DNA of 64,000 bases. Origin: Promethearchaeati archaeon SRVP18_Atabeyarchaeia-1. Lineage in GTDB: Archaea > Asgardarchaeota > Atabeyarchaeia > Atabeyarchaeales > Atabeyarchaeaceae. Location: contig CP147779.1 in assembly GCA_037308085.1 (NCBI GenBank), positions 576,001 to 640,000 on the forward strand, read 5' to 3'. Below the pieces are notes generated by a model. That model did no database searches. It was given only the letters and a program-made list of their open reading frames with translations, and was not told the origin of the DNA. Both the position numbers and the translations under genes were made by a program. Each line of letters starts with the position of its first letter. The first letter of the stretch is position 1. Positions 16,563 to 34,496 of this stretch are shown piece by piece.

Positions 16563-17276
16563 ATGGAACTCGGCTTTGTATCCATTGGCGTTTCTAACCC
16601 TGAAGCGCTCCGGGCACTGCCCTACGGATGGGTGGAAAAAATCGTGAATCTGCGGAGACCCGAAGAGCAACTTCCCACCGTCAAATCGGTAATACTCATG
16701 GCCATGCATGCCTGGGACAACAAGGCATTCAGCTTCGCCATTGACCCACCCAATTGGCTCGGCTACGGAATGCACCCACCCGAACAGCAATTCGACAGCT
16801 ACTACTTCTGCACCGAGATCATGAGGAACAAGGCGTGGCTAATGGTTGAGCATCTCAGAAAAAGCGGCTTCGAATCCACCATTGCTTCTGGATTTCCCCT
16901 CAAGACAGCCGCCGTCAAATGCGGCCTAGGCTGCCAAGGAAAGAACACTCTCCTAATTACCCCCCAGTTCGGACCAAGAGTAAGACTGATCTCAGTGCTA
17001 ACACCAGCACAGCTCGACGCAGACGAACCCTTCAAAGAAGACCTATGCGGAACCTGCGAGAAATGCCTCGCCGCTTGCCCCACAAAGGCGCTTGAACCCC
17101 ACAAGCTGAAAATCACCCGCTGCATGACCTACTCCGTAGAAAGCCCACACTCCTCGGACGTCCCCGACGATGTCAGGAAATTAGAGAAACAATTCGTCGT
17201 GAAGCCCACTCCGAACAGCTACATGGAATGCACAATATGCGCCGATGTCTGCCCCATTGGGAAGACGAAGAAATGA
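16563..17276 (+). CDS. Epoxyqueuosine reductase (QueG)-like 4Fe-4S protein
   Basis: K.AAV..GLG..GKNTLLI.P.FGPRVRL, CxxCxxCxxxCP and a second CxxCxxxCP. Confidence 0.85.
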   Translation: MELGFVSIGVSNPEALRALPYGWVEKIVNLRRPEEQLPTVKSVILMAMHAWDNKAFSFAIDPPNWLGYGMHPPEQQFDSYYFCTEIMRNKAWLMVEHLRKSGFESTIASGFPLKTAAVKCGLGCQGKNTLLITPQFGPRVRLISVLTPAQLDADEPFKEDLCGTCEKCLAACPTKALEPHKLKITRCMTYSVESPHSSDVPDDVRKLEKQFVVKPTPNSYMECTICADVCPIGKTKK

Positions 17277-17329
17277 GCCTGATGCTGCACTCCAGGCGGT
17301 TACGGGCCACAGAATAGAAGCAGCCTTCC

Positions 17330-17632
17330 TTATGTCTTAGGCGAGGGCTGCCTACCTTCACCACCAACTTCCCTTATTTCGCCTGCCTTGCTTACCTTGA
17401 ATTTATGCTTAGTCCTCGTAGTTGAGGAGGGCCCTTCATAGAGCTCGCATACGACGGTAAAATCCTTTCTCCCCCTCTTGACAGAGGCTACCGTAATCTC
17501 CTTCCAGTCCGCCACAATCCTATCAGCTGCCCTCTCCATTCCAGCACCCTTCTTCGTCCCAGACTCATTCCTTTCAAGATAGTTTCTTGCAAGCAGGGCA
17601 GCCGTGTCAGCATTGATCTCTTTTTCTTTCAT
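17330..17632 (-). CDS. Hypothetical protein
   Basis: 100-aa ORF with a TATA-like element upstream. Confidence 0.5.
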   Translation of the reverse strand: MKEKEINADTAALLARNYLERNESGTKKGAGMERAADRIVADWKEITVASVKRGRKDFTVVCELYEGPSSTTRTKHKFKVSKAGEIREVGGEGRQPSPKT

Positions 17633-17759
17633 GCTAATGCGATCTGCATCCGAATCATATAAGAATTCCCGAAAAAATAGAGCTGCCGCCCCTAAGAGGC
17701 TTAATAAGGCAGCTACACAAGACTATCAGTCAACGAGGCGAGGGTGGGGATGAGGTCGC

Positions 17760-18215
17760 ATGCCTAAGTGCCCAGTCTGCGGTGCCAGCATAAGCTCCAA
17801 CGAGCGGGGGTTCAGAGGACGGGGAACATTCGAATGCCCCGAATGCAAGACAAAGCTCAAACTAAGCAGCTCAGTACACACAGTCATCTACACAACACTG
17901 CTACTCGCAACCATCGCGACCATCATCATACTGGTCCAGACCTCCGGGGGGCTAACAGGCACCCACCAATATACAGTCAATGGCGAAATAGCTGGAGCGT
18001 TGGGCTTTCCCGGATCCTTCTTACTAATTTTCTTCGCCCCCTCCATGTATTGGCTGGAAAAGGCGCCCCTCAAGATCGTTGAGCGAAGACCAAGGTGCAG
18101 CCACTGCAACACCATCATTACGCAGCAAAACCCAGAGTTCTGCCCAAAATGCGGGGAGCGACTGACGACTGAGGACCTAAAGGGCACCTTGCCCCGACGC
18201 ACACCCAAGGGTTGA
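17760..18215 (+). CDS. Double zinc-ribbon membrane protein
   Basis: CPVC/CPEC, two TM segments, then CSHC/CPKC. Confidence 0.75.
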   Translation: MPKCPVCGASISSNERGFRGRGTFECPECKTKLKLSSSVHTVIYTTLLLATIATIIILVQTSGGLTGTHQYTVNGEIAGALGFPGSFLLIFFAPSMYWLEKAPLKIVERRPRCSHCNTIITQQNPEFCPKCGERLTTEDLKGTLPRRTPKG

Positions 18216-18318: not shown

Positions 18319-18346
18319 AGGATCACACCGCTTCAACTCACCCTCA
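18319..18346 (-). repeat. atpB 3'-end copy D (core only)
   Basis: AGGATCACACCGCTTCAACTCACCCTCA matches atpB 29127-29154 and reads EGELKRCDP. Confidence 0.85.
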
Positions 18347-18420
18347 CTCTAGTTAAACCTGGATGACTAGAAACCAATCTGCCAAAAGAAAACCAAAAAA
18401 AGAAGGGGAATTGGAGTGTT
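18347..18420 (-). repeat. Shared terminator/junction block (second copy at 22711-22780)
   Basis: CTCT(A/G)GTTAAACCTG.ATGAC.AGAAACC.ATCTGCCAAAAGAA..CAAAAAAAGAAG.GAATTG occurs at both sites. The oligo-A run is oligo-T on the coding strand. Confidence 0.8.
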
Positions 18421-18441
18421 CCAGCGAGCGCTGCCAATCGC

Positions 18442-19779
18442 CTACATCGTTTTCCTGTTGTGCCCGTCTATCATGAAGACGAACCCAACTATGCCGTGAA
18501 GGTTCGGTACAATGAATTTCAGGTTTATGTAATCCCCTTTGAATGTCTGCGTCCACGTGTCGTCGTTGAACATGAGTGGCCCTTTCACGTTCCCGTCGCG
18601 CGAGTGAACTGCCGATATCAGTGGGCATAGGTTCCATCTTCCGTACTTGTCAACGGCGTAGAGCTTGACCTGGTCGATCCACGAGTGGCTGTTGTTGTAC
18701 GCTGCGCCGATCTCAGCGAGCCGTATCGAGCAAACCTGGTGGTTTAGAGCTGGCATCGTGGTCAAGGTGTGGAACACGGTTATGTCGCTTTCAGGGTTGA
18801 CCAAGTTGTGTAGGTTCAGGACGCCCTCGTTAACGAACCCTGTGCCGTCCCAGACCAAGAGGTCCGGGCAGCCGCCACCACCGCCAGGCGGAGGGGGAGG
18901 GGGAGGCGGATAAAGATCCAACGTGACCGATGTCTGCAGAGTTTCCAGGGTCTCAACATGGGTTGGATTACCATCTACATGTTCGAACTGAACCGTTGCA
19001 ACCAGTGTTATCATGTGGGGGATGTTGCCCCTCGTGAGGTACCACTCGATGTCGGCATAAGCCGAAGCTTCGTCCACGCCATAGTTAGCCATCCACCATA
19101 TGTTCCTCTCGTAACTGGCGTCGATGAATCCTGGGTTAATCCATGTAAAGTATCCTCCACTGCTAGCGAAGGGGACATCGGTGTAAGAGCCACCATCTTG
19201 GTTTGCCTGGGACATGTCGTTGCACAGCGTGGTGATGCTATATACCCATCCAAGGATCCCAATGCCGGCAAGGGATGTTATCAGGTCCACCCCAACACCC
19301 AAGGCATACGAGTTGAGGGGGTCGATAGGGTGTGTCTCAGGAATGGGTTTCAAGCCCAAAGTGTTGGTATTATGAATGTATATTCCCATGTATTGCTGGT
19401 AAGATGGGTCCTCAACGACGTCGAGCTTAACCCACCTCACGAAGTAGAACTGATTTCCGGCAGGGGGCTCGGTATCATGAAACACGTTAAGGAGGGAAAC
19501 ATCTATGCTGACTCGAAGCGGCAAAAGGTCATAGGAGTAGCCGCCATCTCCTCTATAGTCGAAATCATAGACGTAGCATGCAATCGCAACCCCGCCCATA
19601 TTCCCTTGCTTCGAGTCCCCAATTGTTTGCCGGAATTGTGTGTCTGTAGTGGGCGTATAAGTAGAGAAGACACTGGGATGCCACGTTGCCGCCGCTGGTG
19701 CCACAACACTGAAAGTAGTGAGTAGCATTACTGACATGAGGGCTATCGTAGCGAGCTTTAATGATCTCTTGTTCTCCAT
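18442..19779 (-). CDS. Secreted protein with Pro/Gly linker and conserved C-terminal 'GGGG-CPxLxVxxG' domain (cargo of unit 4)
   Basis: Signal peptide, then PPPPPPPGGGGGCPDLLVWDG. The C-terminal domain aligns with that of 20580..22190. Confidence 0.85.
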   Translation of the reverse strand: MENKRSLKLATIALMSVMLLTTFSVVAPAAATWHPSVFSTYTPTTDTQFRQTIGDSKQGNMGGVAIACYVYDFDYRGDGGYSYDLLPLRVSIDVSLLNVFHDTEPPAGNQFYFVRWVKLDVVEDPSYQQYMGIYIHNTNTLGLKPIPETHPIDPLNSYALGVGVDLITSLAGIGILGWVYSITTLCNDMSQANQDGGSYTDVPFASSGGYFTWINPGFIDASYERNIWWMANYGVDEASAYADIEWYLTRGNIPHMITLVATVQFEHVDGNPTHVETLETLQTSVTLDLYPPPPPPPPGGGGGCPDLLVWDGTGFVNEGVLNLHNLVNPESDITVFHTLTTMPALNHQVCSIRLAEIGAAYNNSHSWIDQVKLYAVDKYGRWNLCPLISAVHSRDGNVKGPLMFNDDTWTQTFKGDYINLKFIVPNLHGIVGFVFMIDGHNRKTM

Positions 19780-19834
19780 TTACTCGTCTCACTTCTCTCT
19801 CCATGTCTTGCGTTCTCTCTCAGCCCTTCAATTA

Positions 19835-19886
19835 GGGCTAGGCGGTGACCGCCTCCAAGACAAGCAGCCTTGGCTTACCTGCCGTG
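19835..19886. promoter_or_regulatory. Conserved leader block with 15-bp palindrome AGGCGGT-G-ACCGCCT (copy at 22253-22307)
   Basis: Identical palindrome at 19840-19854 and 22258-22272, each 60-70 nt upstream of the cargo start codon. Confidence 0.6.
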
Positions 19887-20039
19887 TTTCGCATCTGAAC
19901 AACGCAAGCATCGTTGCTCTGGGTTTCCCTCAACCGACTTAGCTGAGTTGTTCCCTGAGCGCCCCTCTTGAGCGGCGAATCGTCTCGATTCTGAGACTCT
20001 AGTTGCCTATCACGGCAGGATTTGTTTCCCCGTCCCTCG

Positions 20040-20143
20040 ATCAACTGATAGAAATTATTCCGATGGACCTGCTATTTATAGTTAACGTTTTCTGCTGGGG
20101 GAATCGATTATCGCATTAGAAATAAAACGGCCCCCCGCGCAGC
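20040..20143 (-). promoter_or_regulatory. Duplicated promoter block (copy at 22397-22500) with TATA box TATAAATA
   Basis: TCAACTGAT.GAAATTATTCCGATGGA.CTGCTATTTATAG...CGATTATCGCATTAGAAATAAA occurs at both loci. Confidence 0.75.
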
Positions 20144-20263
20144 GGAACGTGCCTCGAGCAGAACAAGAAAAACCAGCAAGCCGAGGAAATCGAGCCCTTT
20201 CAAGAACCAGTAAGGGAAACAAGCCAAGTAGCGAGCTTGTGAGAAGGGAGGAGAGAAAAGCGA

Positions 20264-20365
20264 TCAGGCGGTTGCCTGCGGCGTCATAGAAGCGTACTTG
20301 TAGCGGCTGGCCCTGCGGGCAGCCTCAATCGTCTTTGGATCGCAAGGCTTCAACTCATTCTCAGA
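20264..20365 (-). repeat. atpB 3'-end copy C
   Basis: Reads [32 protein letters not shown] against the atpB end [32 protein letters not shown]. Confidence 0.93.
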
Positions 20366-20579
20366 AGCGCACGGTGGGAGCAACCCGGTGAGATTATGTC
20401 CTACCTGCGTGACAATGTTTCATGGGATTCCTCGTCGTTGCATCGGGCTTGCTGATCTTGGAGCTTATTACCAATCTTCGAGTATTAGGGTCACAGGAAG
20501 ATGTTTACTGTCAGCATCTGGTGCATAATAGAAAAAGTAAGGGAGTTGGAGTAGTCTCTCGATCCCTTTAGGTGTTGGC

Positions 20580-22190
20580 TCAGAATTTCGATATCACGTT
20601 ATATCCGATTATGACGAATGTGAAGCTTACTGGGTGTATCCATGGTGGTAGCGCTAGGAATCTGAGGTCTATGCTCTGGCTGGCGCCATTGTTCCACTTT
20701 GCCCCAAACTCAGTTGCCCTCAAATTGTCGTCCAAGAGCAGCTGCGGCAACACGTTACCGACTTGTGTTTCAACCGCTGAAACCAAGGGTAGTTGAATAG
20801 TCTTGCCGTTACTCAGGGTAGCGTAGAGCTTGACTTGGTTGATGTGGCTGATCGTCTCCCAATGCTCCGTTAGTCGGAACACGTATGTGTGGTCAACAAC
20901 TGCTGGCGTGTCTGTTAGGATGTGGCTTCTTACCAAGTCCGTTCCATTGTACCCAGAGTGTATGTCCAGCAGACCTTCGTTGACGTACTGAGAACCGCTG
21001 TAGACGTAGAGGTACGGGCAGCCGCCACCCCCGCTCTTTGACCATTGTACGTACACTGTGACCGCCGAAGTGTAAACACAGTCTCCCAACTCGTCATAGA
21101 CTCTAGCTTGAATTGTGTGGGCTACCGGACTAGTAGAAAGGGACACTTCCTTGTACCATAGATGATTGTCTCCGGCTTCGAGATCTAGCCAGGTGCCACC
21201 GTCGCAACTTACTTGGACACCACTAATGAATGGATAATTGCCCTGGTATGCATACACATAAACGCCAACAGCAGCAGTGGATCCGCTGGTGTAGAAAGTC
21301 AGACCAGATGTCGGGTATTTAAGTTGAATCTGAGGCAAATCAGTTATTTTGTTGTAGTTGTATCTGATTACGTCATTTGCATCTATTGTTACATCCGCGT
21401 AGACAGGAGCAGTTCCCACCTGCTTCCCAGTTCTCGGATCAGTGATAGGTTGCGTATCGACTACGTAACTGACCCTGATCGCGTAGTGGACATACACGAG
21501 ATAGGAGCCGTCACCTCCTGTGCAACCGAATTGGAACTTGAACATCAATGAACGCTGTGTCGAGTCTGCCCCAAGAATTGCACGATTGCGATCGTAGTCT
21601 CCATACACATCGTTACCGGTGCCATGTCCAGTCGTGCAGAATGTTCCGTCGAGCTGTACATTCGGTAGCAAGGCGCTAAGACCCGTGCCAACGTGGGCAA
21701 GCAGAAATTTGGCGAGAGCGTTAAAGATGTATGTTAGTAATGGTGCAGCATCACTGCTTGCCGGAGGAGAGGTTTTGACCGAATCCGCGTAAAGGGAGAG
21801 CCAGTTCCCAGGTACCTGGTTGGACTTTGGATCAACCACATAGGCATCAATGCACAGCCTTGTTACCTCGCCCACCCCCGCATCGCATATCAGTCCGCAG
21901 ACGATGTTCTGGTACTGTTGATTGCTAGTTGCGAACTGGCTGACAAGATACTCAATTGACATACCATAGGTGATATTGAATGGCTGTGCGTGGTAGTAAA
22001 CCCCAGACGGTGGGGTAACACGGATTGTCTTCAATTGTGCGCCCGAATGGTAGATCCCATTTGGATATTGCTCTTCTGTTGCGGTGCATTGCGGAAGAGC
22101 GTAAGCGAACATCGTAAGCAACAAGAGCGCTGATACGAGCAATACAGCTCTATACTTGCGAGTGCCAATTCTGCATGTCAGATTTCTCAC
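20580..22190 (-). CDS. Secreted protein with Ig-like domain and conserved C-terminal 'GGGG-CPxLxVxxG' domain (cargo of unit 3)
   Basis: Signal peptide, an Ig-like (Big_7-like) segment ending HTIQARVYDELG, then KSGGGGCPYLYVYSG. Confidence 0.85.
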   Translation of the reverse strand: MRNLTCRIGTRKYRAVLLVSALLLLTMFAYALPQCTATEEQYPNGIYHSGAQLKTIRVTPPSGVYYHAQPFNITYGMSIEYLVSQFATSNQQYQNIVCGLICDAGVGEVTRLCIDAYVVDPKSNQVPGNWLSLYADSVKTSPPASSDAAPLLTYIFNALAKFLLAHVGTGLSALLPNVQLDGTFCTTGHGTGNDVYGDYDRNRAILGADSTQRSLMFKFQFGCTGGDGSYLVYVHYAIRVSYVVDTQPITDPRTGKQVGTAPVYADVTIDANDVIRYNYNKITDLPQIQLKYPTSGLTFYTSGSTAAVGVYVYAYQGNYPFISGVQVSCDGGTWLDLEAGDNHLWYKEVSLSTSPVAHTIQARVYDELGDCVYTSAVTVYVQWSKSGGGGCPYLYVYSGSQYVNEGLLDIHSGYNGTDLVRSHILTDTPAVVDHTYVFRLTEHWETISHINQVKLYATLSNGKTIQLPLVSAVETQVGNVLPQLLLDDNLRATEFGAKWNNGASQSIDLRFLALPPWIHPVSFTFVIIGYNVISKF

Positions 22191-22396
22191 TATCCTTAGA
22201 CTCTTTCTTTCTCTATATTTCCCTGTCTTGTTCTCTTTCTGCCCCTCATATGGGGCCAGGCGGTGACCGCCTCCAAGACAAGTAGCCCTGGCTTCTTAGC
22301 CACCGTGACCCACGCCAGACCGACGTGCCCACGAATCATCATAGACCTCAATCTCCAGCCGCGAATCACGGCAGACTGCTTTTCCTCTTCCCTCAA

Positions 22397-22500
22397 TCAA
22401 CTGATTGAAATTATTCCGATGGATCTGCTATTTATAGCTGTCGCGTTCTACTGGGGGAAACGATTATCGCATTAGAAATAAACCGTCCTCCAGCGCATCG
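22397..22500 (-). promoter_or_regulatory. Duplicated promoter block (copy of 20040-20143)
   Basis: Near-identical to 20040-20143, including the TATA box. Confidence 0.75.
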
Positions 22501-22610
22501 GGACTAGGGTCTCGGGCAGAACACGCCGGCAGACCCGTTCGCGTTATCCTATTCTCCGGCACGCCGTCTGCAGAAGAGACTTGCAGGGTAGACAAATAGG
22601 GAAAGAAGGG

Positions 22611-22710
22611 TCACGCCGTTGCCTGCGGCGCCGTACACGCATACTTGTAGCGGCTGACCTTGCGGGCAGCCTCAATCGTCTTAGGATCACAACGCTTCAA
22701 CCCACCCTCA
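22611..22710 (-). repeat. atpB 3'-end copy B
   Basis: Reads [32 protein letters not shown]. Confidence 0.93.
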
Positions 22711-22800
22711 CTCTGGTTAAACCTGTATGACGAGAAACCGATCTGCCAAAAGAAGATCAAAAAAAGAAGAGAATTGAAGAATCTATAGGTAGCGATGCAA

Positions 22801-23808
22801 TCACCAAGTGAGACCGTACGGATTGGGGACCTCCCACGGACCGGAAGTGGTGGCTGTATTTCCAGCGGAGTCGGTAACCGTGTGCGTAAGGATATAAGTA
22901 CCCGGCGCACTGTAAGTGTGATCTACTACAAAGCCTGTTGCCGTGGAGCCATCACCAAAGTCCCAAGTGCTGCTAACGTAAGGCGTGGTGCCTCCACTTG
23001 AACTGTCAGCGAATTGTAAGTAGAGCCCATTCCAGTGAACTGCGTAGAAGTTAGCCTGTAGTTGAAGATCCCCGGCGCAAGCAGGATAGAAAGTAGGCTC
23101 TGTAAATGACGGAGTCTCTAATGGTATTAAGCCGGGTTGGACTCTCCAATGCGTAGTTATTGTGATGCCGGTTGCAAATGCCTGGTACTTATGTGTTCTA
23201 ATCAATGCCGTCAGAAGCACTTGGTTCGAATTTGATTGTGCAATGTCATTCATTGAGAATGTCCATTGAATATAGCCTCCGAAATTGTCGTCACGCTGTG
23301 TCGTAATCGTAAGAGACTGCTGAGTGTAAGAAGATGTGGCGGAAAAGGTAAGTACGTCCTGACTATTTAGAGATACACCAGTGCCATATGTAAACGACGT
23401 CGTGCCTGTGCTCGGGTCTAGATAGACAGCCATGGATGAATGAGCTAGCTCAAGCCTCGTTGTAGCTCCAGTTATGTATCCAGATTCGCCTCGACTCTTG
23501 CTTGGGTTCATTACTTCCAAGATATAAATCGCGTAATAGTCATATTGCGTACTGGTAGTCGGGATGTACTTGATCATCCATTCATAGTGCAATTGACCAA
23601 CATAGTAAGTCGTTGTATACCATGGAAATATCCAGAAATAGAATTGATGTGTAACATAGTAATCCCTAATGACGGGACCAGAGCTTTGGGCGGTTGGGTT
23701 CGTCCATAGACTAAAGACGTCGTCCGAAGCACGAGCTGGTGCTGCTTGCACTGCCAGAATACTCGTCATCATTACTGCGATCACGATGAATGCAAATGCT
23801 TTTCTCAC
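22801..23808 (-). CDS. Secreted protein with C-terminal PKD domain (cargo of unit 2)
   Basis: Signal peptide after a GTG at 23808 (GGAGG upstream). PKD signature WDFGDG...HTYSAPGTY..T.TVTD..G. Confidence 0.85.
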   Translation of the reverse strand: MRKAFAFIVIAVMMTSILAVQAAPARASDDVFSLWTNPTAQSSGPVIRDYYVTHQFYFWIFPWYTTTYYVGQLHYEWMIKYIPTTSTQYDYYAIYILEVMNPSKSRGESGYITGATTRLELAHSSMAVYLDPSTGTTSFTYGTGVSLNSQDVLTFSATSSYTQQSLTITTQRDDNFGGYIQWTFSMNDIAQSNSNQVLLTALIRTHKYQAFATGITITTHWRVQPGLIPLETPSFTEPTFYPACAGDLQLQANFYAVHWNGLYLQFADSSSGGTTPYVSSTWDFGDGSTATGFVVDHTYSAPGTYILTHTVTDSAGNTATTSGPWEVPNPYGLTW

Positions 23809-23971
23809 TCTCTCTCCCTCCTCTCTTGGTCCGCGCCTCCACGCGGCCATTCCTGACTACTCAGCCGCGTATATTTATGCATTTCGATAGAAAACTGTAC
23901 GGAGGTTGAGTATCCCCAGCCACGAATATGTCAGAAGCGTCAAAGTCAGGTTCGTGAAAATAGATCTACTT

Positions 23972-24079
23972 CTATTCCTCTATGTACTCGTACGCATTCA
24001 CCTTGCGGGCAGCCTCAATCGTCTTAGGATCACAGCGCTTCAACTCACCCTCAGGAAACACTGAAAGAAGATCCCAAGC
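23972..24079 (-). repeat. atpB 3'-end copy A
   Basis: Reads [35 protein letters not shown] against atp[33 protein letters not shown]. Confidence 0.93.
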
Positions 24080-24116
24080 CATTGCTGGAAATAGGCAATA
24101 ATCAGGTGACAATAAC

Positions 24117-25073
24117 CTACTGCCGGTTCTCCGATGCATAATCGTGTAGTAGGTTCTCTTGAGAGTCGGACTTAGTTGACTCTCGACTAGTATTCGGCGT
24201 ATTAAGAATAATAACTTCCTTGATCGCTCCTCTCCCGTCGCCCTTGCAGCTTATCATTCTCTTTGCGAGGATTTCCTCCACCTTATACCCGCTGTAAAGA
24301 TCTGTGATAAGGGGAGCAGCGCTGTTACTTAGCATTAGGAGGCATCCCCTTTTTGCCAGCTCGTCGAAGACCTTAAAGAGGTTTCTTTGGTCATCCTCCG
24401 AGAATGAGCCGCTAGTGTAGCTCGTGAAACTGGAAGTCTTGGAAAGAGGCTGGTATGGTGGATCGAAATAGACAAAGTCTCCTACGGTCGCGTACCTCAA
24501 AACTTCATCATACGGTCTGATATTGAGCTCGACTCCCTCAAGTAACCTGCTTGCTTTGAGTAGGTTACGCTCCTGCACGATCGATGGCTTCTCATAGCTA
24601 CCCATTGGCACGTTGAACTTACCTTGGGAGTTGACACGGTACAGGCCATTGAAACACGTCTTGTTGAGATAAATGAAGTCAGCTGCATTCACTAGGTCCG
24701 GAAAGTCTTCTTTGTTGATCGACGTTCTGAAGTTCTGCCTAGTCTCATAATAGTGGCCTCTTGGATCTTTGTGATGCTCTCGCGCGTGTCTCTTGAGTTC
24801 TGAAAGCAATTTATTGACAGCGTCCCGGACAGAAACGAATCCGTTGATCAAAACGGAGTTGACATCGGTTAGAACGAAATCCCTCTTCGACGCACCCTTC
24901 TTTTCAAGAATACTCTTCAGATAAAAGAAGACTGCCCCACTTCCAAGGAAAGGTTCGAAGTATCTCTCAAAGACCTTGGGAAAGTATTTTCTGTACTCTC
25001 CTAGAAGCTGGGTCTTGCCGCCTGCCCATTTCACAAAGGTGGGAACAGATATCCTCGCGGATTTCGGGTCCAT
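24117..25073 (-). CDS. dam: Dam-family (GATC) N6-adenine DNA methyltransferase, DpnM-like
   Basis: KWAGGK, YFEPFLGSGAV, FNGLYRVN..G.FNVP.G, DPPY and SNS motifs. Confidence 0.95.
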   Translation of the reverse strand: MDPKSARISVPTFVKWAGGKTQLLGEYRKYFPKVFERYFEPFLGSGAVFFYLKSILEKKGASKRDFVLTDVNSVLINGFVSVRDAVNKLLSELKRHAREHHKDPRGHYYETRQNFRTSINKEDFPDLVNAADFIYLNKTCFNGLYRVNSQGKFNVPMGSYEKPSIVQERNLLKASRLLEGVELNIRPYDEVLRYATVGDFVYFDPPYQPLSKTSSFTSYTSGSFSEDDQRNLFKVFDELAKRGCLLMLSNSAAPLITDLYSGYKVEEILAKRMISCKGDGRGAIKEVIILNTPNTSRESTKSDSQENLLHDYASENRQ

Positions 25074-25130
25074 AGGCGCTCTCCTATGAGTAAGTAGAAA
25101 TACATATTATATCTATTCCATGCTCGTTCA

Positions 25131-26027
25131 ATGAGTTTGGAGGGAGAATTGTTGGTAGACTATCGCTTGCTAGGCTTCGAAAGCGAGAATCAATACCTTG
25201 GCTATTTCTTCGAAACACTTCTCAAGACTAACTGGACCTACGAGTACTTCGTCTACTGGGAAAAAGTCAGAGAAAACACTAGGAAGAATGTGAAGGAGAT
25301 ATCTCTCCTAAATTCTCTGACGAAAATCCCGCCCAAGAACAGGAAGGAGGAACTTCAGAGGATCTTCATGGAGTACCCGAAGACGATACCAGTCATCCCC
25401 TCAATCATAGCAATAAGGGAGAAAATCATTCCCATCCTGGAAATCGAGAAAACACCTCTCTACAAGACATTTGACTTTTCTGTCAGAAGACTCGAAGAAC
25501 AAGAGATCCAAGATCTCACCGATTTCTGCGAGAAAGCGGGGATTCTCCAACTTCTTGGAGAGATCAACGATCTCTACGCATACATGCTCGGAGTAGAAGT
25601 CGGACTGGACTCAAATGCAAGAAAGAATAGAAGCGGAGACATATTCCAGCAACTAGTAGGCATGCTCCTGAAGAGAAAACTAAAGCAGGCGGATCTGAAA
25701 ATAGTGACTGAAGATTCAAGCGTAGTAACCACCAGGAGCAAGAGAGCAGACTTTGTTCTCTACCATAGAGGCAGTGCAAAGATAGTGATTGAGTGCAATT
25801 TCTACAACACCACCGGCAGCAAACCAATAGAGACAGCAAATGCCTACGTAGACTTCCAGCGAAGGATACGTGAGAAAGGAGGAACCTCCTTCATCTGGAT
25901 AACCGACGGGCCTGCATGGGAAACAATGAAACAAACCGTCATGCAAAGCTTCAGAGAAATCGATTTTCCAATGAACTACACGATCGCAGGCGACAGACTA
26001 GACAGCCTAGTATCAGCTCTCCTATAG
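25131..26027 (+). CDS. DpnII-family type II restriction endonuclease (GATC)
   Basis: GVEVGLDSNARKNRSG, IECNFY...GSK and FIWITDG..W are characteristic of DpnII/MboI enzymes. Divergent from dam. Confidence 0.92.
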   Translation: MSLEGELLVDYRLLGFESENQYLGYFFETLLKTNWTYEYFVYWEKVRENTRKNVKEISLLNSLTKIPPKNRKEELQRIFMEYPKTIPVIPSIIAIREKIIPILEIEKTPLYKTFDFSVRRLEEQEIQDLTDFCEKAGILQLLGEINDLYAYMLGVEVGLDSNARKNRSGDIFQQLVGMLLKRKLKQADLKIVTEDSSVVTTRSKRADFVLYHRGSAKIVIECNFYNTTGSKPIETANAYVDFQRRIREKGGTSFIWITDGPAWETMKQTVMQSFREIDFPMNYTIAGDRLDSLVSALL

Positions 26028-26185
26028 GACCCGCAGACGCGTACTCGCGACTCGGCACAACAAAGAAAACCAGTAAACCTAGAAAACCGGGCTCTTGTAC
26101 TGCTTGGCTCCCTGCACCGCATCTCCCATTTTAGGGCCACGGTGATTGAACTCACCCCCACCCAAGGAGATCCCTTCTCACTCCA

Positions 26186-27727
26186 ATGCGCCAACGAGGG
26201 ATAGCGCTGCCAGAAATGTACCAGAGAGACGGAAGTAACAATGGCTTAGTGGAGACTATAAGGCGACAACCGGAACCACCAACCAGCAGGAAAACAAGGC
26301 GAGGCCAGACTATGACCGGCGGACAATCGGCTGAAAGTAGCAATGGGTCTTCTCCGCTTGAACTCAACAAGAAACCCCGAGGCTTCGCCGGCGAAAACCT
26401 AGAACAGCTTATTGATCAGGGAGTACTGCCCAAGAAGGATGAAGCAAAGCTAGGCAACAACACGGTCTTGAGACTTGACGTGAATATGGGGCTCACCATA
26501 ACCCACGAGAACATAGACTACAGGATCTCAAGCGCGAACCACAGCAAGATAGGAGACCTAGACTTCTACAGATACGCCACCCAACGCGGGGAGGAATTCC
26601 TCCACATCCCAGCCCAAGGCAAGCTTGTCCCACCCACTGAAATGACCTGGTACGCGTACCCCCCTAACACGGAAGTATATCTGGACAAGAAGTACAAGCA
26701 CAAACTGCTTGAGACTGCAGTAAAGAAGGCAGGAGGGATAGTTGCCCTTCGGCATGAACTAAAGCGAAACGGAACAAGAATGAACGCCATGTACGTCTAC
26801 AAGCAGCTGAACGATCTGAGAAAAGGTATGACTGAAGATAAGTTGATTCCAATTCTCAACTACCTAGGAAGAAACCTAGATGAGGCAAGCAACCACATCT
26901 ACGCGATAGGACACATCCAAGCAGTGAAGGACCCTCAACTACCGTTCAACTTGAGTGGAAAGGATGGTGCAAGGCTACTATCTGCCAGGTACGGAGACGG
27001 AACACTCTGTGCATCAGTAGGGAGAGGACCAAGGTTTGACTACTCTAACAATGATACAGAGATGAGAGACAGAGTAATCGAATCATTAACCAATGTGTTC
27101 GGCGAACCAAACGTACTCAACAGAGAGCACAGTGATGGCCGAGTCTCGCAGGTGCGTACATCGTCAGACATCATCGGACATGCACTGCAAAGGGCGGGAG
27201 CAATAACCGGTGAAATCGTTAACCAGAATCCTCACGTACCCACATGGATCGAACAGGGATCCATAGAAAACAAGCGCGAGTGGATAGTCCAAGCCTTTGG
27301 TGACGAAGGATTTGTGTGGGCAAACAGGGGAAAGGTCTGCATAGGAAGATCTGTCGAGTTGACAAGCGTCTTGCTAGAACACATGTCTCGACACCTTGAT
27401 CAGATGGACTGGGGGAGCAGGTATATTGACGATGTCTTTGTCGATGACGTAAGAGCATGTGATGATCTTCCAGCCGACATCACTCAGGCGATAAGAGAGC
27501 ATCCCATCAACCTGCTAGTCGAAGAGAAGAAGATGCTTGAAGATTTCGGCATAGTCACAGAAATGTATCCCTCAGAGATTCATAGAGGAAAGTATGGAGA
27601 CTATTCAGCTCATTGGACCCTGCAAGCCAAAACAAGAGAAGACACGAGACGTTTCTATGAGGAGATAGGGTTTCCCCAAGAAAGAAAGCAGGAGGACCTA
27701 AGATCGGCTATTCGGTTTGAGAGGTGA
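26186..27727 (+). CDS. Free-standing LAGLIDADG/DOD homing-endonuclease-like protein (true start may be downstream, e.g. ATG 26311)
   Basis: Two LAGLIDADG-like helices (GARLLSARYGDGTL and EWIVQAFGDEGFV) and the DOD-type tail FYEEIGF..ERKQ..L. No Hint blocks. Confidence 0.7.
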   Translation: MRQRGIALPEMYQRDGSNNGLVETIRRQPEPPTSRKTRRGQTMTGGQSAESSNGSSPLELNKKPRGFAGENLEQLIDQGVLPKKDEAKLGNNTVLRLDVNMGLTITHENIDYRISSANHSKIGDLDFYRYATQRGEEFLHIPAQGKLVPPTEMTWYAYPPNTEVYLDKKYKHKLLETAVKKAGGIVALRHELKRNGTRMNAMYVYKQLNDLRKGMTEDKLIPILNYLGRNLDEASNHIYAIGHIQAVKDPQLPFNLSGKDGARLLSARYGDGTLCASVGRGPRFDYSNNDTEMRDRVIESLTNVFGEPNVLNREHSDGRVSQVRTSSDIIGHALQRAGAITGEIVNQNPHVPTWIEQGSIENKREWIVQAFGDEGFVWANRGKVCIGRSVELTSVLLEHMSRHLDQMDWGSRYIDDVFVDDVRACDDLPADITQAIREHPINLLVEEKKMLEDFGIVTEMYPSEIHRGKYGDYSAHWTLQAKTREDTRRFYEEIGFPQERKQEDLRSAIRFER

Positions 27728-27984
27728 AAAGAAACACTATCAAAGAAAATCAAACAGTACTAGTTCAGCAGGCGTATGAATAGTGGAAGGCTGAATACAT
27801 CAAGGAGGAGTAACTGCTGGGATGGCCGAAGGGAAAAGGACTGTCACCAGAAGAAAGGCAACATCCCAAAATAATGACTCCTGGATGGGTGACTCAAGTA
27901 CTTGAATACGTATTCAACCTAATGAAGAAAGTTATGCTTAGGCAATAATCCCAAAAGTTTAATATCGTTTGCCAAATACTTAGC

Positions 27985-28704
27985 TTGAGGGGATACGGTT
28001 TGGTTCGCCAAGTCAGGAGACCCATAGAAAGGCTCACCGATATGCTTCTTCTGCTCTTTCTGATCAACGATGTTAATGATAAAGATCATAACTGCGGAAT
28101 CACGAAGCTACAGAAGCTTGTTTTTCTGTCCCAACTAGAAATGAACAACCATAGACAGAAGGGGTTCAGCTACAAGTTCGTGAAAATAAATCTCGGACCA
28201 GTCAGTGGTCAGATTGAGAAAACTGACATTCCCAAGCTAGAGAAGGTTGGATACTTAGCCCAGGAGCAAGTTGGCAACTTCAACAAGTTTGTTGCCAGTG
28301 AGAGCGGTTCCAGATTTCTTAGCCATCTTTCAGGCATTTTCCATCGGAACGAACGATTCGTGCAGATTATATCCAGAATCAACGAGAAGTACTCTGGCAT
28401 GTCAGCCACTGATCTTGTTAACGAGGTTCACAGTATGCCGAACCCCTACAGGCGGAATCTGACCATAGATGAAACCCCCCAAGGAGAGGTCTTACTCTCA
28501 AAGATATCAGACAAAGCCACCCAAACAAGATTCGACTTCACCGGTAACGAACTCGCAACCCTTGAACTCTACTTTGACGCGGAGGCCAGAGAATCAGTTG
28601 AACGTGCAATGAGTTCAGCACTAAGTGAGCCTAGCGTTCCTTGGGAGGTCGTCCTTAGACATGCAGAAGAAGCGCTACGAGGTAAGGGTCAGCAAAGACT
28701 TTGA
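27985..28704 (+). CDS. Panacea/SocA (DUF4065)-like antitoxin
   Basis: ITKLQKLVFL...Y.F....GP.S motif. Overlaps the downstream toxin gene. Confidence 0.72.
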   Translation: MRGYGLVRQVRRPIERLTDMLLLLFLINDVNDKDHNCGITKLQKLVFLSQLEMNNHRQKGFSYKFVKINLGPVSGQIEKTDIPKLEKVGYLAQEQVGNFNKFVASESGSRFLSHLSGIFHRNERFVQIISRINEKYSGMSATDLVNEVHSMPNPYRRNLTIDETPQGEVLLSKISDKATQTRFDFTGNELATLELYFDAEARESVERAMSSALSEPSVPWEVVLRHAEEALRGKGQQRL

Positions 28705-28996
28705 GCGCGAATTCATAAAACTCGTTAAGAGAGACCCTGAACTGAAGCGCAGACTTGAGTCTCGAATCGAGGAGCTTTCTATAGATCCTAGATTAGGAAC
28801 GACGCTCTACAAGTGGGATTATCAAGGCTGGAGGAAGGCTAGGGTTGGAGAGTACCGCATAATACTGGGAGTGTGCGAGGAATGCAGACAGATCCGAAAC
28901 CCGAATCTGCAACGATGCATCGACTGCGATCAAATGACTGACAACTTAGTGAAACTCATTGAAGTCGGTCACCGGAACGATGTCTATGATGACTAA
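28625..28996 (+). CDS. RelE/ParE-family toxin with CxxC..CxxC insertion (ATG at 28661 likely)
   Basis: YEVRVSKDFEREF...WRKARVGEYRII...IEVGHR.DVY RelE pattern. Confidence 0.85.
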   Translation: MSLAFLGRSSLDMQKKRYEVRVSKDFEREFIKLVKRDPELKRRLESRIEELSIDPRLGTTLYKWDYQGWRKARVGEYRIILGVCEECRQIRNPNLQRCIDCDQMTDNLVKLIEVGHRNDVYDD

Positions 28997-29054
28997 GAAA
29001 AATGCCTGCCCAATTCAAGTTTGAATCATGCCAAACGAGGTAGACGAAAGAAAG

Positions 29055-30536
29055 CTAGGCGGTTGCCCGCGGAGACATAGACGCGTACTTATAGCGACTG
29101 GCCTTCCGGGCAGACTCGATCGTCTTCGGATCACAGCGCTTCAACTCACCTTCAGGAAACGCCGACAACAAATCCCAACCAAGATCCAAAGTCTGCTCAA
29201 TGCTGCGATCCTCGTATTCCCCTTGACTAATAAACTTGCGCTCAAAGGTGTCAGCAAACTTCAGGTAGAGCTTGTCCCTATCAGTCAAAGCCTCCTCACC
29301 AATAACGGCAACCAAATCACGGAGATCCATACCCTCACTAAAAGCATAGTAAAGCTGATCCGACACTTCACGATGATCCTCACGCGTATGCCTAGTCCCA
29401 TCCTTCTCGACACCGATGCCCTCTTTCATTAGGCGACTCAGAGAAGGACGCGGATCCATCGGAGGGTAGATGCCCTTGTGGTGTAATGCCTCAGAAATAA
29501 TCAGTTGTCCCTCAGTGATATAACCGGTAAGGTCGGGAACGGGATTCGTAATGTCCCCGTGGGGCATCGTGAGGACGGGCATTTGTGTGATGGTGCCTTT
29601 TCTGCCTTGTATTCTTCCTGCTCTTTCGTAGATGGTGGCGAGGTCTGTGTAGAGGTATCCGGGGTATCCTCTTCTTCCTGGGACTTCTTCTCTTGCTGCG
29701 CTTATTTCTCGTAGGGCTTCTGCGTAGTTGGTCATGTCTGTTAGGATGACGAGTATGTGTAGGTTTTGTTGGTATGCGAGGTATTCTGCGGTGGTGAGTG
29801 CGCATCTGGGTGTTATGATGCGTTCGATGGCTGGGTCGTCTGCGAGGTTTAGGAAGAGGGTGCATCTTTCTAGTGCGCCGGTGCGTTCGAAGTCTTTGCG
29901 GAAGTATTGGGCTTCTTCTGCGGTGATGCCCATGGCTGCGAAGATTACTGCGAATTGTTCTTCTTTGCCGAGTACTTTGGCTTGTCTGGCTATTTGTGCT
30001 GCTATGCGGTTGTGTGGGAGTCCTGCTCCGCTGAAGAGTGGTAGTTTTTGTCCGCGGACGAGGCTGTTCATGCCGTCGATGGTGCTGATGCCGGTTTGTA
30101 TGAATTCTCTGGGGTAGGCTCTTGCGTCGGGGTTGATGGGGCTGCCGTTTATGTCCCACATGTCTTCGGGGATGATTGGTGGGCCGTTGTCGATGGGTTC
30201 GCCTGAGCCGTCGAGTATTCTTCCGAGGATGTCTGTTGTGACCGGGATCTTTAGCGTTTCTCCTGTGAATCTGGCTGTGGTGTTCTTCGTGTCGAGTCCT
30301 GTTGTTCCCTCGAAGACTTGGACGATGGCTTTTCCTCGCCCTACTTCGAGGACTGTGCCTTTTCTCTTTTCTCCGTCCGGTGTTTCGATGTTGACGAGTT
30401 CGTTGAAGGACACGCCTTCTACGTTTTGAAGTATTATTAGTGGTCCCTTGACTTCGGTTACTGTCCTGTAGGTTCTCTTGGTGTAGAGGTCGGACGTTGC
30501 GGTCCGTGGTTCTGATTCTTCTCTTGCTGTCTTCAT
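29055..30536 (-). CDS. atpB: A/V-type ATP synthase subunit B
   Basis: [66 protein letters not shown]. Confidence 0.98.
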
Positions 30537-30734: not shown

Positions 30735-33700
30735 CTAGAGGGCCGTCCTGTCAGTTATGTGGTTTGCGAGTTTGTCGGTTTCATCTTCGCTGAAGTGCAT
30801 GACCACTACTCCGGGTTGATTGATTTGGGCGACCAGGTCTCTGAGTTTCTTGGCGTCCCTTTTCCAAGGTGTGATTATAATCAGCTCTCCTGTTTGCTCG
30901 TATTTTAGTTCCTGCCTTATCCTTGCGAGCTTGGAGATTGCCGTAGTTAGGTCTATGCTGTTGTTCGTCCAGGTTGCGATCACGTGTTGGTTGTCGGTGG
31001 TTGCGAGAAGCTCCATGACTTGGTCTACCCATCTTGTGTTGACTCCCTTGCTGTGTAGATCTCTGTGGATTGCGTCTATGATGTATTCTTGTAGTATGTT
31101 CCTTGCCTCGTGGTCCGCGATTTGGTAGTATATTCTGGTAATGGTTACGGGAACCGTGTAGCTCGGCGCCTTGACTTCGCCGAGAAAACCATTTCTGATG
31201 AGAGGCTCAACCAGATTCCTCAATTCCTGTTGTGTTTGCACGTTGAGCCTCGATTGGAGTTTTGTCTCCTCGACTATCTCCTGCAGGTGCCTGAAGGCTC
31301 CTCTCACTTTGAGCCATGTCTCTTTGTCTTCTGATGCCCGCGGTGATCTGGCCATGGCTTGGTCCGGTGGTTTCCCTGCTTCTGGTTTCTGTAATCGGTT
31401 TGGGAAGACTAGGTTCATCTGGCTAGGCGGAGCTGAGGCTTCAATTCTCCCCGGGGGTGCCAGGGTCGGGAGTGTCTGGTGACTGACGGGGTAGGCTACT
31501 TGGGGGGTGATTGCGGCGCCTAACCTATCCTGTCTCTTTTCTTCTCTTGCCCCCTTCATACTCTCTATTGCTTTTATGGATGTTTTCAGGGCTTCCCTGT
31601 AGTCTCCTGCCTCGTAGGCTTCCTTTGCCATGTTTCTGAGCCTCGCGGTCTCTGGGGGAAGTGGTTCAACGGGTTTGTGTAGCCGGCTGGGGGTCTCCTC
31701 CATTCCGGTGCTTGGCTTCTGGATCTTCGCTTCCGTGTCGTATATTATTGGGTAGTTCATCATGTTGTTTATCATAATGTCTCTCTTCTCAACTTTCGGA
31801 AGATCCATCTCGAGAGTTTTGATCCTGATTGGCTTGGGGAACCTTGGCGTCGTGATTAGCGCCTCTCTCTTCGGCATTGTCTTCAGGTAGCTTGCCTGCT
31901 CTTCGTCCAAGTTGAGCCACTTTGCTGCTCGCTCATTGTCCACCGTGGTTCGAAGAAATATCTTCGTGGCGGCGTTTGCCACTATGTTTTGGCTTATGTT
32001 TGGTCTTTGTGTCGAGACAATTACTCCTTGTCCAGTGGATCTTAGCAGCAGGACCATTTGTTCGGTTATTGTGGTCTCGGCAGTCGTTTTTCTGGCCAGT
32101 ATCTCTGGGACTATGTCGAGGGCATCATCGATCACTAGTATGTGCTTTAGCTCTTGCTGGACCCCTCTTTGCTGAGCCGCCGTGGCCACATACTTGGTGA
32201 TGATATTCGAGATTAGCCGCAAGTCTTCGGCAGTTCCTTTAGCCTTGACTTCGCTGAGATCTATAATTGCCCTCCGTTTGACCAGATCGCCGAAATTCAC
32301 GTTGCTCACGTCATTATCGAAGACGTCGCTTAGGGGAGTTCTAGTAAAAGAGTTCAGGCGATTGAGCAGTGCCTGGATGGTGGAGTTGATCTGGGGCATA
32401 GAACCTATACCGAGTTTCTCTGCATATGTTTTCAGCCAAGCATTGAATCCTTCCCAGCCTCGGGGATGGATGCCAACCTCAGCGACTCTCTCCCTGCCGT
32501 GCCCCCCCTTTTGATCCTGCGCCACATTCGTCCTAGCGTCTTCTGCCTCTGACTTGACGTATGTTACCAGTGCCTCATAGAAGACGCGCTCCATTTGAGC
32601 GCTTAGATCCCTGCTCTGGTCCATGAAGAGAGTTGAGAAGGTTTCCTTCAATATGGTGAAGATCTTCTTTGCGTGTGTCTCGGGATTCTCCATCTGAGGG
32701 TCAAATAGGCATATCCTAAGCGGAGCCATTTCCGATGCCGGTTTGAGGTAGACCACGTTGCTCAGGATCTTAACCAGCGGCTTGTATTCGCCCTTCATTT
32801 CTATTATCGTCCATGCGACGTCGCTGTGCGACACGGACTCAAGCAGCTTCATGATTAACCTGGTTTTTCCGAATCCGGTTTCCCCGAATATCACTGTATG
32901 AAGCATCAAGTCATCCAGTCTCATTCTCATGGGGCAGATTTCATTATCACTCGACATAACCGTGCCAAGCGTGATGTCCCCTTCCTCCAGCTCTTCTCTT
33001 GGAGGGACTTCAAAGTTGGATGCCGTGGTTCTTGGTATTCCAGGCATGCAATCCTCTGGAAGGCTCAACAGCGTCGCCGCCAGTTTCGACGACACCTCCA
33101 TCATGGAAACTCCTGCCCCGCGCCTGAAGAGGATGTTATCAAGCTGCGACTCGATTTTTCTACCTTTGAGTTTCAGGCATTTCACTCTACTTCCCGCACT
33201 CGAGTAGATAGCCTCAATACATGCATCTCCCTTCTCCTGGAAGAGCTTCACATCCTCAGCGCTTCTGCCTCGGTACGCTGCGAAGGCCGAAACCTTCCAG
33301 AATCCGGACAGTTGGGCGCGCCTCTCCTCGTGTGCCTCTGACTTCCTCTCATTAAGTTCAAGCATGACCTTCATGTCAGGTTCGTTTCTTGCCTTCTCAA
33401 TGAGTTTTGCCTCAGGCGTTATGGATGGAGGGTTCGTCGTTTCCAAGCGAATCACTATTGACGCTGTAAGATGCTCCTTCGCGGAAGCCGCTATGAACTG
33501 CTGCGACGGCGCTTGCACCATGTCAGTAGCACCGGGCGATTCAACTTCCCCTTTGAGCGCGCTGACAGCGACATAATGCTCTTCAGAGCCGTCAGTACCA
33601 TCAATTCTCAGGCAACCCTCAGCCCTTTCGTGGGCGCAGCATGGATCTGCCCCCAAGATTGATCCATACCCGAGCCACATCGCATCGCCCTGAAGGAATT

Positions 33701-34496
33701 CAATCTTACAGTGAAATCTCGCTTGAAGCACAGTCTTCAGTACCTCGGCCTTCCGCTCAGCTGATCTTGCTGCGCAGTCAGCGTCGGAATCAGAGGCCGA
33801 TGTGAAGAACTTGATGGACGTTAGACCGTTTTCAACCATGAACTCAGCGCCGAAATCCGGAACATTGCTCCACAACGAAACTAGATAAGAGTATTGCGTA
33901 AATCCCTCAAGTGACGCCCCAGGGTCTTCGACTTGGTCGCGAAGGACTTTACCCCGTCCCATTGTTGTTGAGGAAGGGGGTGACTGGCTAGTAACCTTGA
34001 GAATGCAGAGGGCCACTTTCCTGTGGCTCCTGACGAAGAGAAGGCTTCTCCCACGATAGGACTTCGCGCTGTTCGCTGCGGCTACATAGCTGTGGCTGCT
34101 TGACATCCGGCGCAGGATGAATACACCTGCTAAAGCAGATGACGTGAGTAATCCAAATGAGAGGAGACCCATAGTGAAAATACTGGATCCCGCGCGCAGA
34201 CCTATCACCGGGGAGAATAGGTAAGCGGAAAGCAAGCTTGATGCCGTAGAACTTAGCGCAGTAATCTCCACATAACGTATCTTGCTCCTTGCAGACCGTC
34301 TGCCGAAAAACTCGTACGCAGCCCACCACAGAGCCACAAAGACTGGAATAGTGACAAGCATCCCCGGCAAGTCGCCATAAACTGATGTGGATGCGAAGCC
34401 TTGATCGAGTTGAGCAAGAAGCCTCAAGACAAGTAGGAGAAGCATGTCAGAGGAAACAAGAAGCGCCATAACATTTCTAACGCTAATCGCTGGCAC
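30735..34496 (-). CDS. Membrane-anchored HerA/VirB4-like (DUF87) ATPase
   Basis: N-terminal TM segments, HTVIFGETGFGKT Walker A, ILVIDDA Walker B, RSTGQG...STQRP and N motifs of the FtsK/HerA family. Confidence 0.85.
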   Translation of the reverse strand: MPAISVRNVMALLVSSDMLLLLVLRLLAQLDQGFASTSVYGDLPGMLVTIPVFVALWWAAYEFFGRRSARSKIRYVEITALSSTASSLLSAYLFSPVIGLRAGSSIFTMGLLSFGLLTSSALAGVFILRRMSSSHSYVAAANSAKSYRGRSLLFVRSHRKVALCILKVTSQSPPSSTTMGRGKVLRDQVEDPGASLEGFTQYSYLVSLWSNVPDFGAEFMVENGLTSIKFFTSASDSDADCAARSAERKAEVLKTVLQARFHCKIEFLQGDAMWLGYGSILGADPCCAHERAEGCLRIDGTDGSEEHYVAVSALKGEVESPGATDMVQAPSQQFIAASAKEHLTASIVIRLETTNPPSITPEAKLIEKARNEPDMKVMLELNERKSEAHEERRAQLSGFWKVSAFAAYRGRSAEDVKLFQEKGDACIEAIYSSAGSRVKCLKLKGRKIESQLDNILFRRGAGVSMMEVSSKLAATLLSLPEDCMPGIPRTTASNFEVPPREELEEGDITLGTVMSSDNEICPMRMRLDDLMLHTVIFGETGFGKTRLIMKLLESVSHSDVAWTIIEMKGEYKPLVKILSNVVYLKPASEMAPLRICLFDPQMENPETHAKKIFTILKETFSTLFMDQSRDLSAQMERVFYEALVTYVKSEAEDARTNVAQDQKGGHGRERVAEVGIHPRGWEGFNAWLKTYAEKLGIGSMPQINSTIQALLNRLNSFTRTPLSDVFDNDVSNVNFGDLVKRRAIIDLSEVKAKGTAEDLRLISNIITKYVATAAQQRGVQQELKHILVIDDALDIVPEILARKTTAETTITEQMVLLLRSTGQGVIVSTQRPNISQNIVANAATKIFLRTTVDNERAAKWLNLDEEQASYLKTMPKREALITTPRFPKPIRIKTLEMDLPKVEKRDIMINNMMNYPIIYDTEAKIQKPSTGMEETPSRLHKPVEPLPPETARLRNMAKEAYEAGDYREALKTSIKAIESMKGAREEKRQDRLGAAITPQVAYPVSHQTLPTLAPPGRIEASAPPSQMNLVFPNRLQKPEAGKPPDQAMARSPRASEDKETWLKVRGAFRHLQEIVEETKLQSRLNVQTQQELRNLVEPLIRNGFLGEVKAPSYTVPVTITRIYYQIADHEARNILQEYIIDAIHRDLHSKGVNTRWVDQVMELLATTDNQHVIATWTNNSIDLTTAISKLARIRQELKYEQTGELIIITPWKRDAKKLRDLVAQINQPGVVVMHFSEDETDKLANHITDRTAL

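Follow-up and report, generated by a model that had tools for sequence, protein, structure and literature searches.

The window analysed here is a 64,000-nt stretch of the complete 2.81-Mb chromosome of a Ca. Atabeyarchaeum (Promethearchaeati archaeon SRVP18_Atabeyarchaeia-1; GenBank assembly GCA_037308085.1, contig CP147779.1, positions 576,001 to 640,000 of the forward strand), referred to below as the source genome (G000). Relatives are labelled G001 and G002, and contigs L104, L105, L106, L109 etc. The window encodes an Asgard-type actin. It also carries atpB, the gene for A-type ATP synthase subunit B, whose product shares 88–92% amino acid identity with those of two family relatives. For the closest named relative, Atabeyarchaeia-2 (Ca. 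Atabeyarchaeum deiterrae, CP147780.1), atpB identity was 89%. Behind the 3' end of atpB lies an array (0.594–0.606 Mb of the G000 chromosome) of gene blocks parted by further copies of the last codons of atpB, here called tails (Table 1). This array is real, family-wide and integrase-free, and was formed by serial displacement of the atpB tail: DNA entered repeatedly at the 3' end of the gene, each segment with its own working end. Since each incoming segment brought a replacement for the last 30–50 codons, atpB remained intact, and the old tail and its cargo were pushed downstream.

Table 1. Features of the atpB array, in order of decreasing window position
Feature	Position in window	Strand	Basis or remark
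atpB, A-type ATP synthase subunit B, 493 aa	29055..30536	-	Pfam ATP-synt_ab 1e-74, ATP-synt_VA_C
Resident tail, last ~33-41 codons of atpB	29055-29178	-	
Unit 1a, ParE/RelE-type toxin gene	28625..28996	+	Pfam PF05016 5e-6; 111-aa gene on Logan contigs
Unit 1a, Panacea (SocA-like) antitoxin gene	27985..28704	+	PF13274 5e-5, just below curated cut-off; PADLOC PDC-M19A 1e-7
Unit 1a, free-standing double-motif LAGLIDADG endonuclease-like gene, 513 aa	26186..27727	+	Predicted model and fold search
Candidate decayed tail A', between units 1a and 1b	26134..26163	-	Match to copy A and G001 synteny
Unit 1b, DpnII-type GATC restriction endonuclease	25131..26027	+	Pfam PF04556 5e-74
Unit 1b, Dam-type N6-adenine methyltransferase	24117..25073	-	PF02086 4e-57; PADLOC MTase_II
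Displaced tail A, short variant end	23972..24079	-	Reads [25 protein letters not shown]...
Unit 2, PKD-domain protein, signal-like N-terminus	22801..23850	-	Pfam PKD_4 1e-12
Displaced tail B (22611-22710) and 59-nt upstream arm	22611..22769	-	Arm 91% identical to arm before D
Unit 3, conserved leader (22230-22504) and 536-aa secreted-type protein (20580-22190)	20580..22504	-	
Displaced tail C	20264..20365	-	
Unit 4, conserved leader (19812-20148) and 445-aa secreted-type protein (18442-19779)	18442..20148	-	
Tail D, 26-28-nt core only (match 18319-18352), B-type arm before it	18319..18405	-	
Unit 5, zinc-ribbon membrane protein (17760-18215, +) and 100-aa gene (17330-17632, -)	17330..18215		Pfam
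Candidate last remnant E, ancestral atpB end and T/C-rich trailer	17260..17321 (approx.)	-	Synteny

The four co-oriented copies of the atpB end reported by the initial annotation (A to D) were recovered by repeat search where they had been placed, all on the atpB strand and, when translated in frame, readable as atpB tails. Positions 23984-24077 of A were 80% identical to atpB 29085-29178, and B (22611-22710) and C (20264-20363) showed 81–85% identity to the atpB end. BLAST against the 2.81-Mb genome gave E-values of 2e-23 (C), 2e-19 (A) and 2e-4 (D), and B was detected by tblastn (E 5e-9); neither program found copies of the atpB end elsewhere in the genome. B and C reach the stop at the same codon as atpB; in D, similarity to atpB ends directly after GATCC. 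As had been claimed, B, C and D begin at nearly one codon (within 0–4 nt), and A extends 24 nt further upstream. The common core E-G-E-L-K-R-C-D-P proposed earlier holds for atpB, A and D (translation [10 protein letters not shown]). The translations of B (EGGLKRCDP) and C (ENELKPCDP) deviate, so the shared core is only approximate. Differences between the resident tail and B (11 synonymous and 7 non-synonymous; pN/pS 0.20, binomial P 8e-4) or C (10 synonymous and 7 non-synonymous; pN/pS 0.21, binomial P 2e-3) fall mainly at synonymous sites, which argues that B and C once worked as gene ends. Within G000 the tails resemble one another most, and the resident core is nearly identical to the displaced cores.

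Tails delimit units, as first described, but instead of four units there are probably six: unit 1 would be divided by the decayed tail A', and the array probably continues past D, through unit 5, to the remnant E. A' matched copy A at 22/30 nt, with a score of 32 against 17.5 +/- 2.6 for shuffled sequences (maximum 28 of 300). Its position fits an older tail, because the 3' end of the DpnII gene in G001 lies about 80 nt past the atpB stop. E was at chance level by local alignment alone, and its candidacy comes from synteny: 17211-17322 is homologous to two stretches of G001, each following an atpB tail, and the 100-aa gene of unit 5 has a G001 homologue directly beside such a tail. With A' and E counted, the order from atpB is ParE, Panacea and LAGLIDADG (1a), A', DpnII and Dam (1b), A, PKD protein, B, 536-aa protein, C, 445-aa protein, D, zinc-ribbon and 100-aa genes, E.

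The content given earlier for unit 1 was upheld by Pfam for Dam, DpnII, Panacea and ParE/RelE, and by structure model and fold search for the LAGLIDADG-like gene. Units 2 (1343 nt, A to B) to 4 each hold one gene for a secreted-type protein in atpB orientation, also as annotated; all three begin with hydrophobic signal-like segments (read from the sequence, no signal-peptide predictor). Arms common to cassettes with unrelated cargo precede B and D (91% identity) and follow B and C (78–86%), the latter figure being that of the unit 3 leader against the unit 4 leader. The 445-aa and 536-aa proteins have only their C-terminal 150 aa in common (37% identical). This domain of about 150 aa starts with a GGGGCP motif and had no match in Pfam, NCBIfam or PADLOC; contig L109 has a 641-aa homologue behind its atpB. 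Three secreted-protein genes are preceded, at about 30 nt, by a 65-nt motif that contains two short hairpins (19812-19876, 22230-22294 and G000:C1:1901693-1901764); contigs of other samples match 38 nt of it and diverge on both sides. It may be a common leader or operator. The zinc-ribbon genes found beside tails in three genomes have nothing but the ribbon in common.

At the same place in relatives, tails were found behind atpB in G001, G002 and the JGI contigs L104 and L105, and in L109 an endonuclease gene stands beside atpB. Their cargo is unlike that of the window, and each lineage has different blocks adjoining atpB. In G002, five extra tails are spread over 26 kb, and among the cargo are an HD protein, an SNF2 cluster, a DUF87/HerA-like gene followed by a LAGLIDADG homologue, a cation-efflux gene, AbiEi/AbiEii, an M20 peptidase and an Imm5-like gene. 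In G001, five contigs together hold at least nine tails, with an M20 peptidase, an amino-acid permease, an epimerase and AbiEi among the cargo. L104 carries three tails. The single displaced tail of L105 stands 4.2 kb behind atpB, from which Schlafen/AlbA_2 and ParB-ASCH genes separate it; its closest counterpart is the resident tail of a different lineage, L106 (83%). An M20-peptidase block with flanking tails is common to G001 and G002, and the distal array is therefore old. The newest block in G000 relative to G001 comprises ParE, Panacea, LAGLIDADG and a new tail. None of 78 more distant archaeal and bacterial atpB loci had an extra atpB tail within 10 kb. Relatives with their own tail sets and different cassettes thus bear out the proposal that the atpB end is a long-standing anchor for accreting different cargo; the opposite case, a fixed gene content in relatives, fails on the different cargo at the same place.

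A second array of the same build was found outside the window (locus L107, G000:C1:2700475-2713664). Here at least seven co-oriented copies of the last 35–45 codons of a RuBisCO-large-subunit-like gene lie within 2700475-2712434; the gene is 34% identical to rbcL at 187734-189014 and has two frameshifts in the assembly. Two MNT/HepT pairs are among its cargo, as are genes for an alpha/beta hydrolase, a glycoside hydrolase and a NIPA transporter, and fragments of the RuBisCO-like tail also occur at 1709987-1710067 and 1711216-1711278.

The 513-aa protein of unit 1a was confidently modelled with AlphaFold2 (predicted local distance difference test score, pLDDT, 83.6) and compared with the PDB by Foldseek. 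Matches included intein-borne and free-standing LAGLIDADG homing endonucleases (intein homing endonucleases E 4e-8; I-DmoI TMt 0.6–0.69). D271, G272 and G372-D373-E374-G375 (GDG and GDEG motifs) were invariant in 19 homologues. The putative endonuclease has a LAGLIDADG fold, and its acidic motif residues are invariant. Six family copies are present in G000. A subclade of seven with 100/100 support includes the copies of the window, L104, L113 (= the G002 array) and L109, and is thus found repeatedly, in four lineages, in arrays at atpB; the L109 gene ends only 40 nt away from the stop codon of atpB. Outside the subclade, the family members with examined surroundings (five other G000 paralogues, L110 and L111) are not at atpB. 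The window protein is 66–68% identical to those of L104/L112 and 53% to that of L109. It is thus nearer to L104/L112 than to L109 despite flanks of L109 with about 80% DNA identity to the window, which suggests transfer of the gene between arrays. In the window, the gene lies between the working atpB end and a displaced copy only if A' is accepted. In a conserved pair, a DUF87/HerA-like gene of about 1100 aa is directly followed by a LAGLIDADG family member (L090:1-2173 with L089:11170-14001 in G002; L104:4677-10379; L108:6611-12535; L113:2285-7288); the pair may be a defence or DNA-transfer module of its own.

For the mechanism of tail displacement, we infer break repair and homologous recombination, probably triggered by the LAGLIDADG endonuclease, an explanation that we prefer tentatively and with somewhat less than even confidence. 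Homology would be provided by the tail copies and atpB, and no cassette-borne integrase would take part. Breaks would probably be made by the array-associated free-standing LAGLIDADG enzyme, cutting atpB tails that lack its linked variant. Toxin-antitoxin and restriction-modification cargo would help a new block to persist, and blocks could later be lost, copied or relocated by recombination between tails. The 5' limits of tails vary between 0 and about -150 nt across genomes, which fits repair tracts rather than one crossover point. Among the three drivers named in the initial annotation (one in trans, homologous recombination, the LAGLIDADG protein), the last gained most support, by association only.

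Several observations weigh against break repair started by this enzyme. Most cassettes are without an endonuclease gene, and none was seen among the nameable products of the RuBisCO-like array. The G000 resident core is so close to the displaced cores that no obvious change of immunity is apparent. No tail duplications were present near the five other G000 LAGLIDADG paralogues, nor on contigs L108, L110 and L111, and no displaced tail was detectable in L109 though the gene abuts atpB. In G002 and L104, the LAGLIDADG gene is deep inside a large unit, where it partners the DUF87/HerA-like gene, and it may therefore be plain cargo or belong to a defence pair. Finally, a discrete site accounts better for the core-only D and for the sharply defined starts of B, C and D. 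An extended form of the break-repair explanation, which we regard as rather unlikely, would make the locus an Asgard integrase-free gene-capture platform: a mobile LAGLIDADG enzyme would target the tail of a conserved gene and install a recoded tail and linked DNA in each round, and the RuBisCO-like array would be a further instance.

Site-specific accretion, the main rival, is somewhat less likely than break repair. Here the blocks would be integrase-less cassettes resembling cis-mobilizable elements (CIMEs), each with an attP site holding a replacement atpB tail, and a tyrosine recombinase encoded elsewhere (one of three large integrases, or a Xer-type enzyme) would insert and excise them at the core. 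The architecture corresponds to tandem accretion at a gene 3' end (PMC5704250), with stacked units parted by direct repeats in which the target-gene 3' end is contained. The starts of B, C and D lie within the few nucleotides noted above, D keeps only the 26-28-nt core, and conserved arms accompany unrelated cargo. Among 17 copies in three genomes, seven start no more than 8 nt from the core; against this explanation, other copies start 17–150 nt upstream, and B and D are not independent starts, because the same arm precedes both. The resident genes of G001, G002 and L109 also lack conservation of the core in their DNA sequence. The genome has four PF00589 genes (at 1.55, 1.66, 2.02 and 2.59 Mb), none less than 900 kb from the array. 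No integrase was found among the searched open reading frames (ORFs) of about 25 cassettes from five lineages and of the RuBisCO-like array, and no integrase or transposase by Pfam or PHROGs match in the cargo of all arrays, some short ORFs being outside the search. The earlier statement that the array is without a tyrosine recombinase was supported and can be widened, as none lies in or near any array.

Searches for the site itself were negative as well. The core pattern was absent from IMG/VR viral contigs; in JGI metagenome contigs the strict pattern was not found, and a looser one matched only two atpB loci of relatives and no mobile element. An integrase beside the same core on an element, which the initial annotation had envisaged, was accordingly not found in either collection. 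By eye, the core showed no dyad symmetry, and no dif-like 11-6-11 inverted-arm site as in integrative mobile elements exploiting Xer (IMEX) was seen in the core and following 30 nt (no formal scan). No attC-like fold was detected on either strand of A, B, C or the resident tail (DNA-fold z -0.55 to +0.39 versus shuffles). The idea of a discrete att core is not supported, given the spread of 5' limits, the failure to find an element with the core next to an integrase, and the missing integron-type fold.

Less probable still, and in our judgement unlikely, is a passive flexible island, bordered on one side by atpB, that strains exchange through homologous recombination and that was shaped by a few illegitimate events and tandem duplications, the LAGLIDADG gene being cargo. 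Units 3 and 4 are paralogous in leader and C-terminal domain, the tails of G000 are most alike among themselves, and the M20-peptidase block indicates that part of the array is old and inherited. In a second sample, the unitigs of units 2 and 3 had a lower k-mer depth than those of unit 1 and the flank and ended away from the cores, which weakly favours the island. The proposed shuffling of cassettes is likewise weakly favoured, by shared arms on unrelated cargo and by the uneven contig depth. Runs X2, X4 and X6 had uncovered stretches, and in X2 the unitigs of units 2 to 4 had a depth of about 5–6x versus 13–15x for the flank and unit 1; together these give no more than a hint of variation in the array between populations. 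In the contigs of four sequencing runs, neither a joint across a unit nor a circle junction was seen. Random illegitimate events would not confine over 20 independent 5' limits to the final 80 codons of the gene, nor produce the same pattern at a second gene. A passive island also leaves unexplained the LAGLIDADG subclade at atpB in four lineages and the mainly synonymous differences between tails.

An assembly artefact, in which strain variants of the atpB end were stitched together, is scarcely credible: unit 2 is a separate 1368-nt unitig joined only via a 54-nt near-identical stretch common to A and B, but in the source run a single 41-kb unitig covers the flank, D, unit 4, C and unit 3, one 7-kb unitig covers the stretch from A to atpB, and arrays of this build also occur in another complete genome and in JGI contigs of independent origin. 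The mis-assembly raised as an alternative in the initial annotation is therefore not supported. When the exact proteins of atpB, the PKD gene and the Fer4 gene in the flank were looked up, every contig recovered had the same arrangement, broken at repeats.

Known systems resemble the array in part. In the 'orphan' arrays of Rhs, CdiA and type VI secretion system (T6SS) effectors, recombination within the conserved gene portion brings in new ends. Each old end, together with a conserved stub of variable length and its linked gene, is pushed downstream, and the variable end is the payload (toxin and immunity). The present array differs in that its ends are tails of a housekeeping ATPase gene and its payload is made up of unrelated genes. 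In mitochondria of the fungus Endoconidiophora resinifera, C-terminal duplications of atp6 and cob are flanked by LAGLIDADG and GIY-YIG ORFs (PMC6279837). As with these free-standing homing endonuclease genes, the working host-gene end is kept, an older C-terminal segment stands downstream, LAGLIDADG-type ORFs may lie between and there is no integrase. Unlike them, the array is on an archaeal chromosome and stacks up to at least six units, with defence, secreted-protein, transport and metabolic cargo mostly lacking an endonuclease; the predicted endonucleases (430–840 aa) have an added N-terminal part.

Integrative and conjugative or mobilizable elements (ICEs/IMEs) and CIMEs accrete in tandem at a gene 3' end, e.g. 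ICESt1/ICESt3 at fda (PMC5704250). There, too, direct repeats of the target-gene end part stacked islands, many without integration genes, and the incomer supplies the new end. However, those arrays contain matching integrases or trace to them, and they have a fixed crossover core; here no integrase was found in any array, and the repeat limits vary by up to 150 nt. Archaeal integrase-less cassette arrays (clusters of attC sites lacking integron-integrases, CALINs) are mentioned in PMC11529989. Like integrons and CALINs, the present array is one-directional, with short promoter-poor cargo units and a fixed platform; unlike them, it has no IntI and no attC, and its repeats are coding-sequence tails without excess folding. 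Aloposons were considered as relatives and rejected as unrelated (giant genes, tRNA target sites). PMC11529989 (Valentin-Alvarado et al. 2024), the main mobile-element paper on these genomes, describes 18 integrated elements in them and speaks of a 1.3-kb element and of 'defense islands'; its text makes no mention of atpB, ATP synthase, DpnII or GATC.

On the other side of atpB, a gene for a 1253-aa DUF87/HerA-like ATPase (30735-34496, minus strand) with weak matches to CedD, VirB4 and mad8 separates atpB from atpA. A homologue occupies the same place in G001 (about 70% nt identity). Close kinship with the DUF87/HerA-like partner of the G002 LAGLIDADG gene was rejected, the two being only 22% identical. 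The atpA gene (34621-38079, minus strand) contains an intein that includes a LAGLIDADG endonuclease domain (Intein_splicing, LAGLIDADG_3); atpA of G001 appears to be without the intein, because its ORF is only 598 aa. An IS6/IS240-type DDE transposase gene (39503-40258, minus strand; Pfam label) is located upstream of atpA, about 9 kb from the atpB 5' end. Along atpB, synonymous divergence was 0.2–0.35 in the body and 0.6–0.9 in the 3' third; an excess near the tail was not clear, as the baseline from actin and methyltransferase is 0.59. An apparent L105/L106 breakpoint was not robust. Compared with that baseline, the low between-genera divergence at codons ~100–300 (29300-30300) suggests strong synonymous constraint or homogenisation of the atpB body.

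If the break-repair explanation is true, the array shows uptake and turnover of accessory genes at fixed chromosomal sites in Asgard archaea without integrons or cassette-borne integrases. It would then also tie a family of homing endonucleases to gene turnover in the closest prokaryotic relatives of eukaryotes. Were the wider platform interpretation to hold, the site would gather and exchange defence and surface genes in the manner of an integron, with entirely different parts.

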